This document shows, one piece after another, positions 32,201-62,200 of a stretch of DNA of 64,000 bases. Positions within the stretch are counted from its first letter, which is position 1. Each line of letters begins with the position of its first letter. The DNA lies in assembly GCF_057098645.1 (NCBI RefSeq), contig NZ_CM169472.1; one strand, written 5' to 3'. Position numbers: made by a program.

Positions 32201-35200
32201 GTTGAGGTCGGCAAGCGTAAAGCGTCCTTCCCAGTTTGTTTCATAGTCCTCGCGCGGGAAGTCGCCCGGCGATGCGCCTTTTTCCAGTGCGGCCTTCACC
32301 TTGTGCGCGTAGGCAAGATTTTTCTCGCACATCGGTGCCGCAGGAATGTACATCACGTTGCCCCAGCCCTGTTGATTTTCAACGGGGGCAACGGAATGGA
32401 TGACGTCGCAGTGCCACCAGACGGAGTCTCCGGCTTCGAGTTGTGGAATGCTGGTTAACGCCTCAATCAACAGTGGATGCCATTGCTCTGATACCGGCAA
32501 TACTCTTCCGGGCGCTACGCCGCACAGTTCATCCTCCGGCACATCATCAAGCAGCGGACGTAACAGTACGTACGCCATGGCTTCAGGAATGGGCACGACG
32601 TGCAGCAACCCCTGACCAGGCAGCATATCAGAGAGCGCTGTCCAGCCCTGGAATGTCCGAAACACGGAACATTTGGTGGTGTTGTCCACCGTGTACTCTT
32701 CAACTTCCGTACGATGTGCCGCATGCCAGGGATCATATTGCGCCAGATTGCCATTAAAGACGTTGGCGAAAACGCGCTGATACGCTGGAAGCAGCCAGCG
32801 TTCCAGTGCCCCGGAGTCGGTATGCGCTCCAAGACCTTTGGAGGTCGTTCCGGGCGGACGGCGGCGGATACGGTCAGGGTAGATGACGCTCACATCCGGG
32901 TTAAACCATTGCTTTCCATCACTTTCAAATGTCCACAGACGATTGAGAAACGACTGCGCATTCGCCATTTCTTCACTCTGGCGAGCCTGCATTTGCGCCT
33001 GCGACCAGTAGATGGGGTAAATCTCGGGACGTGAAGCGCTGAGCGTCCCGAAGAAATTATCGCCGGGGCCTTTGTAGACCTCGTCAAAGCGGTTGCGGTC
33101 CAGATAGTCCAGCATCGACTGATCCCAGCCTAGCGCTTGTTCGCGGGGGAAATGGCCTTTTATCACCGCACAACCGCGACGTTTAATCTGTTCGCGCTGC
33201 TCTGCAGTAACATGACCTGCTTTGATATCGGCATAAGACAGCACCGGCCAGACGGCATCGCCCTGTGCTTTGAGTGCGTTGATTTCAGCCACTCGCGTGG
33301 CAATGTCATCGCTTAGCTGATTAAAGATCTGCTGGACGTCGCCAAGCTGCGCCCGCAGCGCGTGCTTCATCTGACGGATAGCTGCTTTGTGATCGGCAGG
33401 CAATGTGTCGCTGGTAAAAGTAGAAGCCATAACCACCTCGCATTAACTTTCATTCGAAACTATGATGATTTGCATGTGACAATATAAGTTACAAATAAGT
33501 TAATGCAAGTTTAATGATTTGATGTGATGTACAGGATGTAAAAAGAAGGGAAAACCGGAGCGCATGGCTCCGGTAGAGAGGTCAGCTGTTAAAAGGGGAT
33601 GTGTTATCCAGCACAGCCTGAATCACATTCAGCGCGCCTTCATGATTATTATCATCGGTAGCGTAACGGGCGATTTGTTTAATGTTTTCCGCAGCATTGC
33701 CCATCGCAAAGGAATAACGCGCCATTTTCAGCATCTCCGCATCGTTACCGCTGTCGCCAATCGCTACCACATTTTGCGGTGACAGATCCCAGCGTTTCAG
33801 TAACCGCGAAATACCGTTTGCTTTATGTAGACCGGGAATAATCAGGTCGATAAAGCCAAAACCACTGGTGACGGGTTTCATAATGCCATCCAGCGCTATG
33901 TGCAGTTTGTCGATCACTAACGGGATTTGTTCATCCGGCAGGTTGAGCGAAAACTTGAACAGTACGTCGTCAATTTCCTGATAATCTTTTACAGGTTTCA
34001 GGCGATGGTAGTGTTTTGCCATCAGTGCGACGAATGCTTCGGGGGCATTTTCGCTGACATATGCACTTTGCAGACCGCAGGCGACAAAATTGAGTTGCTT
34101 ATCTTTTAGCAACTCGCCAATAACAATCCGCGATTCATGTCGGGTCAGTTCGCCGTGGAACAGTTGCTTGCCATGTTCGTAAACCAGTGCGCCGTTTTCC
34201 GCGACAAAAGAGATCTCATCCTTTAGCTCAGGAAAGAACGAAATAAGCTGGTAATACTGATTACCGCTGGCGACAACGAACTTAATGCCGCGCTTTTTCA
34301 GTTCCTGATATTGCGCCATAAAACGTGGTTGGTTGTACGTTTTGGCGTCGTTAAGAAAAGTACCGTCCATGTCTGTGACGATAACTTTTACGCTCATAGG
34401 TGTGCTCCTGGCTCGAAAATGAAACCGTAACAGTGTAATAACAATGTGACGCAGAGCACAAATTATATTTCGAATGAAAGTGAGAGTGAAATTGATGGTG
34501 TGAATGATTTAGCCCGGCGACGTCTCCGCCGGGCTGAGGGGATTACAGCATATGTTCGGTACGGGCGATGATATCGTCCTGAGCGTCTGGAGAGAGCGCG
34601 GTGAAGAAGGCGGAATAACCCGCGACACGCACTACCAGATCGCGATACTGATCGGGATGTTTTTTCGCATCCAGCAGCGTTTCGCGGGAAACGATGTTGT
34701 ACTGAATATGCCAGCCTTTATGCACTTCAAAGAAGGTGCGCAGCAGGATCATCAGTTTCTGCTTGTCAGATTCGTTCTCCAGTGTTGCTGGATTCAGTTT
34801 CTGGTTGAGCAACACCCCGCCGAGAATCGCTGCCGTAGGCAGTTTACCCACCGAGCCAATGACCGCAGTAGGGCCAAGATGATCAGTACCGGAAGCCGGG
34901 CTTGCGCCTTCTGCCAGCGGGGTGTGCGCTTTACGTCCGTCCGGCGTTGCCATAGTCTGCGCGCCAAACGGTACGTTAGCGGAGATAGACGACGTACCCG
35001 CGTAATAGTTGCCGCCAACCGGACCACGACCATAGCGCGGGTTATGGTACTGTTTCAGTTCGTCGATATAGGTCTGATAAGCGCGAGCCAGCAGCGTATC
35101 GACGGTATCATCGTCGTTGCCGTACTTAGGTGCGCCGTTAATCAGACGCTGACGCAGTTGCTCGTGCGTCAGGCCGTCGAAGTCATCTGCCAGTGCGGCA

Positions 35201-59200: not shown

Positions 59201-62200
59201 AACGGAATTTTGTGGCTGTCGCTGATGGTTATCTTTTTAAAAGATAAACAGATGGGAAATTCTCACGAAGGGTAAAAAAATGCCTGATTGCTTTGTGCGA
59301 TCAGGCATTCTCGAATTAATGGTGATGGTCGTCAATCTGGTGTTCGATAACCATCCCTTCACCTACGCTGGCAAGATGGCGAACATAAGGATGCGGGCGG
59401 TAAGCCGGAGCTGGCGCAGGAGCCACATAGACGGTTTGCGGCACAGTCGCGACGCTGACCGCTTGTGGAACGCTGACTGAATCAGGAACCACAACCACTT
59501 TGTATCCACTCGGCACATCGACGGTGACACTTTGCGCCATCGCCACACCAGTAAAGCCCATTAAAAGCGCGCCCAACAGTAGACAATTTTTCATAATCAT
59601 TTCGCCTGAAATAATGCAGCGGGTTAATTTCCGCGAATTATGCAGCCTTCATTCAGGTATTGTGTTGCCGGGCGTGCTGCCGTTTTTATTGGTCAAATGG
59701 CGCTTCGTGTTTAAGAACTTTATCGATCACATCCAGTACGCCTTCACGGTTATTGGAGCCTGCCCGGTATTTTGCCGCTGCGACGACCGCGTTGCCGGCA
59801 TTTTCCATTGCAAAACTAAAGCCTGCCTGACGCAGCATCTCAATATCGTTACCGCCATCGCCAAAGACCACCACTTCGCTGTCGTCTATTCCCCATAATT
59901 TCTGCAGTTGGCGAAGGCCATTGGCTTTATGTACGCCGGGGATAATCAGATCGATGCTGCCGTTGCCGGTGTGGACCGGCACCATAATATCGCCGATGGC
60001 CTCATGTAATGCTTTTTGTACTTGTGGAATCAGTTCATCGGAAAGATTCAGGCCAAACTTAAAGAAGATATCTTCTAAGTTGTCAAAGTTATCGACGTAT
60101 TCCAGACGGTGATAATACATTTCCGCCACCGTTTTCATGGCATCGTCATATTTTTTGAGCGTATAGGCGCTATTTTTTCCGCAGGCAATAATTTCCACTT
60201 CCGGGCGCGTCAGCAAATGTTCCACGACAGTAGTAAACGCATCCTTCGACAGCTCGCCATTAAAAACATCTTTGCCTTCACTCACTACCCAGCCGCCGTT
60301 TTCAGCCACAAAGGCAATTTCATTAGCAATTTCAGGGAAGAAAGAGATCAACTGATAATATTGATTCCCGCTGGCGACCACAAAGCGAATGCCTTGTGCT
60401 TTCATTTGCTGATACTGAGCCATAAACCGCTCACGGTTATAGGTTTTTTGATCGCTTAAGAAAGTACCATCCATGTCTACCGCAATTAATTTAATGCTCA
60501 TCAACTATTCTCCATCGCCGTCTGCGTTTTGGTATCGGGTTTGGCGACGGCTTTCGCGACAATAGCCGCGAGAATAACCAGCGCCAGTACAACCAGCATT
60601 GCACTACGTAATCCATAATGTTCGCCGAGATAGCCCAGCAGCGGCGGCCCGACGAGGAAAGCCAGATAACCGGTCGTTGCTACCACACTGACGCGGGTTG
60701 GTGCATCGGGGCCGGTATCGCTGGCGGCAGAAATGGTCAGCGGGAAGCCCAGCGAGGCACCCAGTCCCCAGAGTACAACAGACACCCCAGCGACCCAGGC
60801 GCTATCGACAAAAATAATCAGCCCAATACCCAACGCCCCCATTAGCGCACTGGCCCGAACCACGGCAACGCGACTGTAACGGTCGATGAACCAACCGCCA
60901 GTGAAGCGTCCAACGGTCATCCCCAGGGTAAAACCGGCATAAATCAGCGAGCCGGAAGTGGGGCTAAAACCGTGACCGTCAACCATTAATAAGGGTAACC
61001 AGTCGTTGGCAGAACCTTCGGCAAAGGCCATCGCCAGCACCACAACACCAATCAGCAGCAACTGGATATCGCGATAAAAAGGTACGCCTTTTTCGCCATG
61101 CTGGGTGCCATCGGCAGCATTTTTGCCCGTACCGTCAGGGATTGCCTGAATGGCGATATATATAGGCGCGATGCCTACCAGCGCCGCCAATAAAATGTGC
61201 ACCGTTGCCGGAACGCCAAAGGCCGTCAGTGCCATCCCGACACCAGCGCCTGCCAGCGTGCCCAGGCTATAAAAACCGTGCATCATCGGCAAAACCGTTT
61301 TATTCATTTCTCGCTCAACGGCGGCACCTTCAACGTTTATCGCCACTTCCGCAGAACCAAAACTTGCCCCAAAGACGCCGAGACCAACGGCAAAGAGCAG
61401 GGGCGATGTCAGCCAGAGTGCCAGACTTAATATCATCATCCCGACCAATGCGCAGGACATGGTGACCAGGATGACATTACGTGTCCCAAAGCGTTTCACT
61501 AACCACGCCGAGCAGAGAATACCGCTCATCGAACCGATCGACAGACCAAAGAGAACACCGCCCATTTCAGCGATCGAGACAGAGAGAATATCGCGGATAG
61601 CAGGCGTACGGGTTGCCCAGGACGCCATTAACAGGCCCGGCAAAAAGAAGAACATAAACAGCGCCCAGGTTCGGCGTTTCAATGCATTACGTGAAGAATT
61701 TACGGTCATAGATCACGTCAAAATAAGAAGAGGGAAGACAACATTAGCAAGGTTGTGTACATTTGTACACAATTGCAGACAGAGGAAATGACATGCGTCG
61801 CGCTAACGATCCGCAACGGCGAGAAAAAATTATCCAGGCCACGCTGGAGGCGGTGAAACTTTACGGAATACATGCTGTTACGCACCGCAAAATTGCTACC
61901 CTTGCCGGGGTACCGTTGGGATCGATGACCTACTATTTTTCAGGAATTGATGAGTTGTTGCTGGAGGCGTTCAGCAGTTTTACTGAGATCATGTCCCGGC
62001 AATATCAGGCATTTTTTAGCGATGTTAGTGATGCTCAAGGCGCATGCCAGGCTATCACCGATATGATCTACAGCTCACAGGTGGCAACGCCGGATAACAT
62101 GGAGCTGATGTACCAGCTCTACGCGCTGGCTAGCCGAAAACCGCTATTAAAAACGGTAATGCAAAACTGGATGCAGCGCAGTCAGCAAACGCTCGAACAA

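Follow-up and report, generated by a model that had tools for sequence, protein, structure and literature searches.

The window, that is, the whole stretch of 64,000 nucleotides analysed here, is part of an E. coli chromosome and contains two pairs of paralogous genes, ybiV/ybjI and ybiJ/mcbA, all of them on the minus strand (Table 1). The four open reading frames (ORFs) were found where an earlier note had placed them, and their names were taken from the RefSeq annotation of near-identical O145:H28 chromosomes. For two genes, the mechanically delimited ORF is longer than the annotated one: that of ybjI begins 3 nt upstream of the annotated start, at TTG, and that of mcbA extends to position 16539, with the RefSeq start at 16395 fitting NCBIfam model NF040473 over residues 1-86 of 86. 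The stop codon of ybjJ overlaps the ybjI start (TGATG), and scans for promoters and terminators near ybiV and ybjI gave consensus-level hints only.

Table 1 Genes and sequence elements considered in the window
Feature	Position	Strand	Description	Basis
ybiJ	12015..12275	-	Precursor of a putative periplasmic protein, DUF1471 (PF07338), 86 aa	ORF and RefSeq ybiJ
mcbA (ybiM)	16135..16395	-	Precursor of a putative periplasmic protein, DUF1471, 86 aa	RefSeq start
ybiV (supH)	33582..34397	-	Cof-type HAD-IIB sugar phosphatase, 271 aa	ORF and RefSeq 'sugar-phosphatase YbiV'
Codons 40-57 of ybiV	34227..34280	-	HAD motif II region, 18-residue stretch	
ybiW-ybiY	34543..37880	-	Glycyl radical enzyme and its activase, upstream of ybiV	Annotation
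ybjI	59686..60501	-	Cof-type HAD-IIB phosphatase, 271 aa	ORF and RefSeq name
Codons 40-57 of ybjI	60331..60384	-	Same 18-residue stretch	
ybjJ	60501..61709	-	MFS transporter gene adjoining ybjI	

All four proteins score above the cut-offs of the respective profiles, which bears out their earlier assignment to the Cof-type HAD phosphatases and the DUF1471 family. The Pfam profile PF08282 (Hydrolase_3) is matched over its full length (1-255 of 255) by YbiV (E = 6e-54) and YbjI (E = 6e-55), and the NCBIfam Cof-subfamily model TIGR00099 (cut-off 137), likewise covered completely (1-256 of 256), gives 222.1 and 192.9 bits, respectively. For the YbiJ/McbA pair, PF07338 yields 64.8 and 69.8 bits at a gathering score of 27 (E = 7e-18 for YbiJ), and the equivalog models (cut-off 110) reach 173 bits on YbiJ (NF007611) and 174.5 bits on McbA (NF040473). 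Both paralogies are already published. Seven Cof-like paralogs of E. coli have been listed and their overlapping substrate ranges described (PMC3040653), and ybiV and ybjI of the window are the very genes included in this Cof-type HAD-IIB family (Cof, YidA, YbhA, YigL, YbiV/SupH, YbjI, YedP). Compared with the known family no difference in kind is found; the additions made here are a YbiV/YbjI subfamily, its signature and a conserved 26-kb linkage. Likewise, the DUF1471 paralog family has been described (PMC4092069) and YbiJ has been called a paralog of McbA (bioRxiv 10.1101/2025.02.11.637708). Both are named members of this Enterobacterales family (DUF1471/YhcN/BhsA-McbA, PF07338) and do not depart from it; each measures ~86 aa and is matched over its whole length by its own NCBIfam model.

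The alignment of YbiV with YbjI is gapless, with 140 of 270 residues identical (52%, E = 3e-99), which confirms their paralogy; identity of the two genes at the DNA level amounts to 57%. Within the compared E. coli Cof-type set (YbiV, YbjI, Cof, YbhA, YidA and YigL), both proteins are each other's nearest paralogs, displaying 52% identity to one another versus 20-29% to Cof, YbhA, YidA and YigL, and they also form the closest pair of this set, in which Cof and YigL share 39%. YbiV is virtually identical to the protein of PDB entries 1RLM/2HF2. Both phosphatases contain the HAD motifs, namely DMDGT at residue 9, VVASGN (S43), HKANG (K191) and GDSGND/GDGGND at 214, K191 being taken as motif III by position alone. 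Between motifs II and III lies a C2-type cap, given by the solved structure in case of YbiV and by the gapless alignment in case of YbjI. This cap is the most diverged part of the two proteins, with 37-42% identity compared to 59-60% in the catalytic core. Reported substrates of YbjI are FMN and 5-amino-6-(5-phospho-D-ribitylamino)uracil (ArPP) (PMC7017516). YbiV is marked as a sugar-phosphatase by its RefSeq product name, and the substrate reported for the neighbouring YbiW is 1,5-anhydroglucitol-6-phosphate (PMC12441222).

Synonymous sites of ybiV and ybjI are saturated (dS undefined, dN 0.44), with third codon positions being 39% identical versus 25% expected. Moreover, the orthologs of each gene make up a group with a conserved gene neighbourhood of its own in Escherichia, Salmonella, Citrobacter, Enterobacter, Klebsiella, Kluyvera and Kosakonia, among others. 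Among the matches listed, ybiY-ybiW adjoins every YbiV-type gene having synteny, across genera, and every YbjI-type gene has a YbjJ homolog at -1190 to -1237 nt. Because of this saturation and the separate contexts conserved across genera of the Enterobacteriaceae, the ybiV/ybjI split can be considered ancient, in agreement with the old duplications proposed in the earlier note.

The same note had pointed to long identical stretches shared by YbiV and YbjI. This applies to one run of 18 residues, located at residues 40-57 of both proteins, all other runs comprising just 5-7 residues. Being by far the longest identical run of the alignment, the block might be taken as the product of recent gene conversion between ybiV and ybjI. 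However, synonymous differences are found in 10 of the 18 codons (43 of 54 nt identical), and gene conversion is rejected on their account. Moreover, the peptide is retained at 14-18 of 18 positions throughout the YbiV/YbjI-like subfamily including Firmicutes (Breznakia 18/18, Listeria 16/18), compared to only 2-4 of 18 in other Cof-type proteins, and it holds the serine of HAD motif II, so that recent conversion is exceedingly improbable. Rather, the stretch is kept constant by purifying selection acting on the region of motif II. YbiV and YbjI constitute a subfamily in their own right, marked by a motif II signature of 18 residues.

In the window, ybiV and ybjI are situated ~26 kb apart on the same strand. 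Where a single contig carried both genes (18 species), strand and order were the same as in the window in 17 cases, at a spacing of 21-64 kb (median 25.8 kb). Across complete E. coli genomes, ybiV is present in 5425 and ybjI in 5417 of 5426, with a median of one copy each. The chance that one specific gene pair falls within 26 kb is ~1%, and the closeness of both genes most likely reflects a local origin, as suggested by this distance, the common strand and the conserved order. The 26 kb between them consist of conserved core genes, an arrangement which is awkward for a simple tandem duplication followed by insertion.

Alternatively, one of the two genes, more probably ybiV, could be a xenolog which entered an ancestor of the Enterobacteriaceae from, e.g., a Firmicutes-like donor, landed ~25 kb from its resident homolog and was kept there ever since, rendering both genes pseudoparalogs. 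Firmicutes homologs (Listeria, Bacillus, Breznakia) match YbiV and YbjI at 45-52%, just as YbiV and YbjI match each other, and mean identities are 49% for YbiV versus YbjI and 46-49% for either of them versus the Firmicutes proteins. Furthermore, among the best 80 of at least 504 matches, syntenic YbiV-type genes occur in Enterobacteriaceae only, and the Yersiniaceae sequences listed lean towards YbjI (56% versus 46-49%). From these best 80 matches, 41 ingroup and 4 outgroup sequences were used for a neighbour-joining tree (Kimura distances, 200-300 bootstraps). Here, the YbiV/YbjI subfamily (100%), the YbiV clade (100%) and the YbjI clade (86%) are recovered, but the deep nodes are poorly supported, with a bootstrap of 8% for monophyly of the Enterobacterales, and this deep branching leaves room for a transfer. 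On the other hand, the rooted tree places the Firmicutes outside all Enterobacterales sequences, albeit without bootstrap support, groupings of either YbiV or YbjI with Firmicutes reach only 0-9%, and the prior probability of inserting by chance within 26 kb of a homolog is ~1%. GC and GC3 contents are also similar (0.47/0.52 for ybiV and 0.46/0.50 for ybjI, both slightly below those of neighbouring genes), but as a sign of foreign origin they are uninformative for an ancient event. Owing to the equally distant Firmicutes and the 8% bootstrap, horizontal acquisition of one copy keeps some plausibility, although it appears rather unlikely. If true, insertion near the homolog would have been coincidental and the duplication local in appearance only.

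According to the favoured duplication scenario, one ancestral gene for a YbiV/YbjI-like Cof-type HAD-IIB phosphatase would have given rise to ybiV and ybjI before the radiation of the Enterobacteriaceae. Each copy would then have kept its own transcription context, with ybiV behind ybiY-ybiW and ybjI translationally coupled to ybjJ. The core and all four HAD motifs would have been retained, whereas the substrate-selecting cap domain diverged. Such a pattern fits the different activities assigned to both enzymes by annotation and literature, i.e. sugar phosphates for YbiV versus FMN and ArPP for YbjI.

YbiJ and McbA are homologous as well, with 40 of 86 residues identical (47%, E = 1e-22) and a DNA identity of 51%. 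In both proteins, a hydrophobic N-terminal leader ending in A-x-A (FAA/YAA) can be read from the sequence, and a signal sequence has been reported for YbiJ (bioRxiv 10.1101/2025.02.11.637708). The C-terminal GTA(V/T)IYK highlighted in the earlier note is indeed present in both, but it is a family-wide trait rather than a feature of this pair, since BhsA ends in GTAVIYK, YahO in GTANIYK and RclB in ATAVLYK; a signal sequence and a C-terminal (G/A)TAxIYK have been described for DUF1471 proteins in general (PMC4092069; bioRxiv 10.1101/2025.02.11.637708). Within the set compared (the family without YdgH), YbiJ and McbA were not found to be each other's closest relatives: the 47% between them (score 175) stand against 47% between YbiJ and BhsA (score 180) and 45% for YhcN, with 44% between McbA and BhsA. 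Bootstrap support for a YbiJ/McbA grouping is 14% with all columns and 48% with the mature part. Sequence comparison thus characterises YbiJ and McbA as family members and not as a specific pair. They probably represent two of the about ten small periplasmic stress/biofilm proteins of the DUF1471 family in E. coli and would sit in a YbiJ/McbA/BhsA(/YhcN) subgroup, the inner order of which lies beyond the reach of 86 residues.

Hence, ybiJ and mcbA might be neighbours by chance or through independent placement instead of local duplication, with mcbA possibly deriving from a bhsA-like gene. This explanation may be put forward tentatively, given that identities among YbiJ, McbA and BhsA are all about the same (44-47%), and that the NCBIfam BhsA model scores YbiJ higher than the McbA model does and McbA higher than the YbiJ model does. 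In addition, mcbA is less widely distributed and is missing from Salmonella, where the best match to McbA is YcfR/BhsA (PMC4092069), and with 10 paralogs, some pair or other would fall within 4 kb with a probability of ~8%. By contrast, DUF1471 genes cluster repeatedly, as seen for yjfN-bsmA-yjfY of MG1655 and, in Salmonella, for yhcN and a ycfR-like gene (PMC4092069), which suggests growth of the family by local duplication, and in the mature region alone YbiJ with McbA is the best-supported pairing (48%). It was also considered whether ybiJ/mcbA ... ldtB of the window and bhsA-ldtC at 25 min could stem from the ancient duplication of one block; this was rejected, because LdtB is nearer to LdtA (64%) than to LdtC (48%).

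Repeats mediating rearrangements in E. coli, such as rrn operons, IS elements, REP/BIME and rhs, show near-identity across stretches of hundreds to thousands of base pairs. The minimal efficient processing segment for RecA-dependent exchange in E. coli reportedly corresponds to ~20-30 bp of perfect identity, a value said to go back to Shen and Huang in 1986. Both pairs of the window resemble those repeats in their direct-repeat geometry on one replichore, and same-strand direct repeats are the geometry required for deleting or duplicating what lies between the copies (26 kb or 4 kb). The earlier note had regarded the paralogs as substrates for recombination. At the DNA level (57% and 51%), however, the longest exact words shared by the copies measure only 11 nt for ybiV/ybjI and 9 nt for ybiJ/mcbA, far below ~20-30 bp, and no exact tract of that length exists in either pair. 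In a control for ybiV/ybjI alone, ybiV shared words of 9.9 nt on average and 12 nt at most with random window segments, so that 11 nt is chance level. Likewise, when junctions were searched with flanks only (1 kb + 1 kb) in ~5,425 complete E. coli genomes, no ybiV/ybjI deletion, no ybiV/ybjI tandem duplication and no ybiJ/mcbA deletion was detected. The ybiJ-mcbA block is intact in 5417 of 5426 E. coli genomes, and the order of ybiV and ybjI is stable across genera. In contrast to the repeats named above, the two pairs thus lack any exact match >11 nt as well as any copy-joining rearrangement among the genomes searched, and the idea of live recombination substrates is hardly credible. Neither pair retains sufficient DNA identity for RecA-dependent homologous recombination, as divergence at the DNA level is too great.

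Both pairs are very probably ancient, functionally diverged paralog sets of the E. coli core genome which do not recombine. The finding itself is ordinary and of little import, both families being textbook features of E. coli. What remains of use is that ybiV/ybjI and ybiJ/mcbA are no rearrangement hot spots, and that the identical peptide around HAD motif II is a signature conserved in the subfamily and no trace of gene conversion. For the Enterobacteriaceae, the ybiV...ybjI arrangement provides a stable synteny marker. Finally, the divergence of core and cap offers a tidy example of HAD phosphatases diversifying their substrate range after duplication, and this pattern could guide cap swaps between two phosphatases, one acting on sugar phosphates and the other on FMN/ArPP.

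All four genes described in the earlier note as two local paralog pairs are present as open reading frames on the minus strand, with agreeing RefSeq names. The window derives from an E. coli chromosome and around ybiV is 100% identical to O145:H28 strains. The proposed family assignments were upheld by profile searches, in which YbiV and YbjI match PF08282 and TIGR00099, and YbiJ and McbA match PF07338 as well as their own YbiJ- and McbA-specific NCBIfam models. Additionally, YbiV corresponds to a protein of known structure (1RLM/1RLO/1RLT/2HF2). Both paralogies are already published, and the earlier note reads ordinary, known biology correctly. 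YbiV and YbjI are among seven Cof-like phosphatases of E. coli (PMC3040653), YbiJ has been stated to be a McbA paralog (bioRxiv 10.1101/2025.02.11.637708), and DUF1471 comprises about 10 E. coli paralogs, some of them clustered, with McbA missing from Salmonella (PMC4092069).

Positions in the window of the four paralogs and of other features discussed
Feature	Position	Strand	Basis
ybiV, sugar phosphatase	33582-34397	minus	ORF and RefSeq name
ybjI, 5-amino-6-(5-phospho-D-ribitylamino)uracil phosphatase	59686-60501	minus	ORF and RefSeq name
ybiJ	12015-12275	minus	ORF and RefSeq name
mcbA	16135-16395	minus	ORF and RefSeq name
ybjJ stop/ybjI start overlap (TGATG)	60499-60503
REP/BIME-like repeats	~11780-12010
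ldtB	29193-30113
ybiU (DUF1479)	32165-33430
gsiA	41781-43760

On formal alignment, identity was not low for either pair, with 140 of 270 residues identical between YbiV and YbjI (52%, no gaps, E 3e-99) and 40 of 86 between YbiJ and McbA (47%, E 1e-22). In an all-against-all comparison that took in further K-12 proteins from each family, YbiV and YbjI display only 20-29% identity to Cof, YbhA, YidA and YigL, and are hence genuine sister paralogs in E. coli. Of the long identical stretches reported for these two, one 18-residue run stands (residues 40-57 in both proteins, the longest identical run), while the others extend over just 5-7 residues.

The DUF1471 proteins behave differently in the same comparison: YbiJ-McbA reaches 47% (score 175), YbiJ-BhsA 47% (180), McbA-BhsA 44% (170) and YbiJ-YhcN 45% (157), in agreement with BLASTP. 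YbiJ and McbA each score higher on the NCBIfam BhsA model than on the other's own model, and neighbor-joining (NJ) bootstrap support for their pairing reached only 14% with all columns and 48% with the mature part. Since YbiJ is as close to BhsA and bootstrap values are this low, there is no evidence that ybiJ and mcbA are sisters, be it from identities, BLASTP, NCBIfam scores or NJ bootstrap; they fall into a common subgroup that includes bhsA and may extend to yhcN. The common C-terminal motif GTAxIYK is indeed present in both, but it is family-wide in DUF1471 and not specific to the pair.

A role of either pair as recombination substrates, as had been suggested, is not supported. The longest exact DNA word is 11 nt for ybiV/ybjI and 9 nt for ybiJ/mcbA; between ybiV and random window segments, the common word averages 9.9 nt (maximum 12). 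Because all four genes lie on one strand, exchange within a pair would be expected to yield a deletion or tandem duplication with predictable flanks. Junction queries consisted of two 1-kb flanks, which would merge into one place in a recombinant, and among ~5,425 complete E. coli genomes none carried a ybiV/ybjI deletion, a ybiV/ybjI duplication or a ybiJ/mcbA deletion. ybiV was found in 5425 and ybjI in 5417 of 5426 E. coli genomes (median one copy each), and the ybiJ-ybiI-ybiX-fiu-mcbA block is intact in 5417 of 5426. Five records labelled plasmids carry both ybiV and ybjI and probably represent either F-prime-like elements or replicons with a wrong label. The 18-residue block was ruled out as a product of gene conversion by synonymous differences at 10 of the 18 codons; the subfamily-wide retention of the peptide (18/18 in the Firmicute Breznakia) also speaks against conversion, while just 2-4 of 18 residues are conserved in other Cof-type proteins. 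Unlike the paralogs, the REP/BIME-like palindromic repeats between hcxB and ybiJ (GCCTGATAAGACGCG...GCATCAGGC, GCCGGATGCGGCGTAAACGCCTTATCCG) are genuine dispersed DNA repeats, and a flank query containing them matched a median of 12 places per E. coli genome. Small indels upstream of ybiJ, amounting to a 12-bp coordinate offset, distinguish the window from the near-identical RefSeq strain RM12761, in which gsiA, an intact ORF here, is annotated as frameshifted.

The suggested old age of the ybiV/ybjI split is confirmed by synonymous saturation and by the occurrence of both gene types across Enterobacteriaceae genera. The genes are 57% identical at the DNA level (third positions 39% vs 25% expected from composition) with dN = 0.44, while dS could not be estimated due to saturated synonymous sites. 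In a scan of species-representative genomes, the best 80 of at least 504 loci, sorted by identity and flanking genes, fell into two orthologous groups. Among these listed matches, YbiV-type proteins are 75-97% identical to YbiV and 47-52% to YbjI, and nearly all their genes adjoin ybiW-ybiY(-fsa)-moeB, usually also ybiU; YbjI-type proteins are 64-96% identical to YbjI and 48-55% to YbiV, every gene having a ybjJ homolog 1190-1237 nt upstream across genera, and most having rcdA, mdfA, ybjG and deoR nearby. Both types occur in Escherichia, Salmonella, Citrobacter, Enterobacter, Klebsiella, Kluyvera, Pluralibacter, Trabulsiella and others. Again among the matches listed, 18 species carry both genes on one contig, 17 of them sharing the window's strand and order, with a spacing of 21-64 kb (median 25.8 kb; window 26.1 kb). 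Hence, the split is older than the Enterobacteriaceae radiation, since which the layout has been stable.

The one species with both genes on opposite strands is Salmonella enterica subsp. diarizonae (locus L020, match 6001-6804), where ybiV points the other way from ybiU and ybiW, in what looks like a single-gene inversion; the ybiY-moeB interval of this locus showed no fsa homolog. A third YbiV-like group (L045-L048; Entomohabitans, Mangrovibacter, Shimwellia) is 58-61% identical to YbiV and 50-52% to YbjI, with neither ybiW/ybiU nor ybjJ as neighbours. Next to ybiV, ybiU varies within E. coli: window positions 33000-35000 are covered to at least 80% in just 4329 of 5425 genomes, strain SF-088 has ybiT directly beside ybiV without ybiU, and another strain (L012) carries a divergent allele (82% amino acid identity), which marks ybiU as an accessory or polymorphic gene in an otherwise core region.

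An NJ tree of 41 ingroup sequences from the best 80 of at least 504 loci, rooted with four Cof-type outgroups, supports the YbiV/YbjI-like subfamily (bootstrap 100%), the syntenic YbiV clade (100%), the syntenic YbjI clade (86%) and the grouping of the YbiV clade with Mangrovibacter/Shimwellia/Entomohabitans (98%), while the branching order of the YbiV and YbjI lineages, Yersiniaceae, one Pantoea and four Firmicutes sequences received no support. Horizontal acquisition of one copy, ybiV or ybjI, would fit the bootstrap of just 8% for Enterobacterales monophyly and a mean identity between both clades (49%) no higher than that of either to the Firmicutes sequences (46-49%), but appears unlikely given that the genes lie close together on the same strand. 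As one specific gene pair would fall within 26 kb by chance in only ~1% of cases, in-lineage duplication is favoured.

All four HAD motifs are kept in YbiV and YbjI (DMDGT, ASGN, K191 by position, and GD(S/G)GND). Identity amounts to 73% over residues 1-60 and 59-60% over the core overall, vs 37-42% in the cap region and down to 30-33% at residues 91-150. Substrate specificity of HAD-IIB enzymes is conferred by the cap. Hence, the cap-concentrated divergence fits the differing reported activities, sugar phosphatase vs ArPP (the riboflavin intermediate)/FMN, the latter two being dephosphorylated by YbjI together with YigB (PMC7017516). ybiV is positioned behind ybiY and ybiW, which encode a glycyl radical enzyme system with 1,5-anhydroglucitol-6-phosphate as its substrate (PMC12441222); YbiV may putatively be tied to the anhydroglucitol pathway. 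Sequences resembling a promoter and a terminator hairpin flank the ybiV gene, both at consensus level only. The stop codon of ybjJ overlaps the ybjI start by one base, which implies co-expression of ybjI with this MFS transporter gene. In Rahnella, a distant MFS gene (28% identical) occupies ybjJ's offset from the YbjI-type gene; together with the near-constant offset across genera, this suggests ybjJ-ybjI to be a putative conserved transporter-phosphatase unit.

With regard to DUF1471, 81 bp separate bhsA from ldtC in MG1655 (L004 9074-10375), and ybiJ and mcbA share the window with ldtB, hinting at an ancient block duplication; this was rejected, LdtB being closer to LdtA (64%) than to LdtC (48%). 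In the same strain, yjfN and bsmA are 149 bp apart (L010 4018-4771), with yjfY 8 kb beyond (L010 12517-12792), and this clustering suggests local duplication as a general growth mode of the DUF1471 family.
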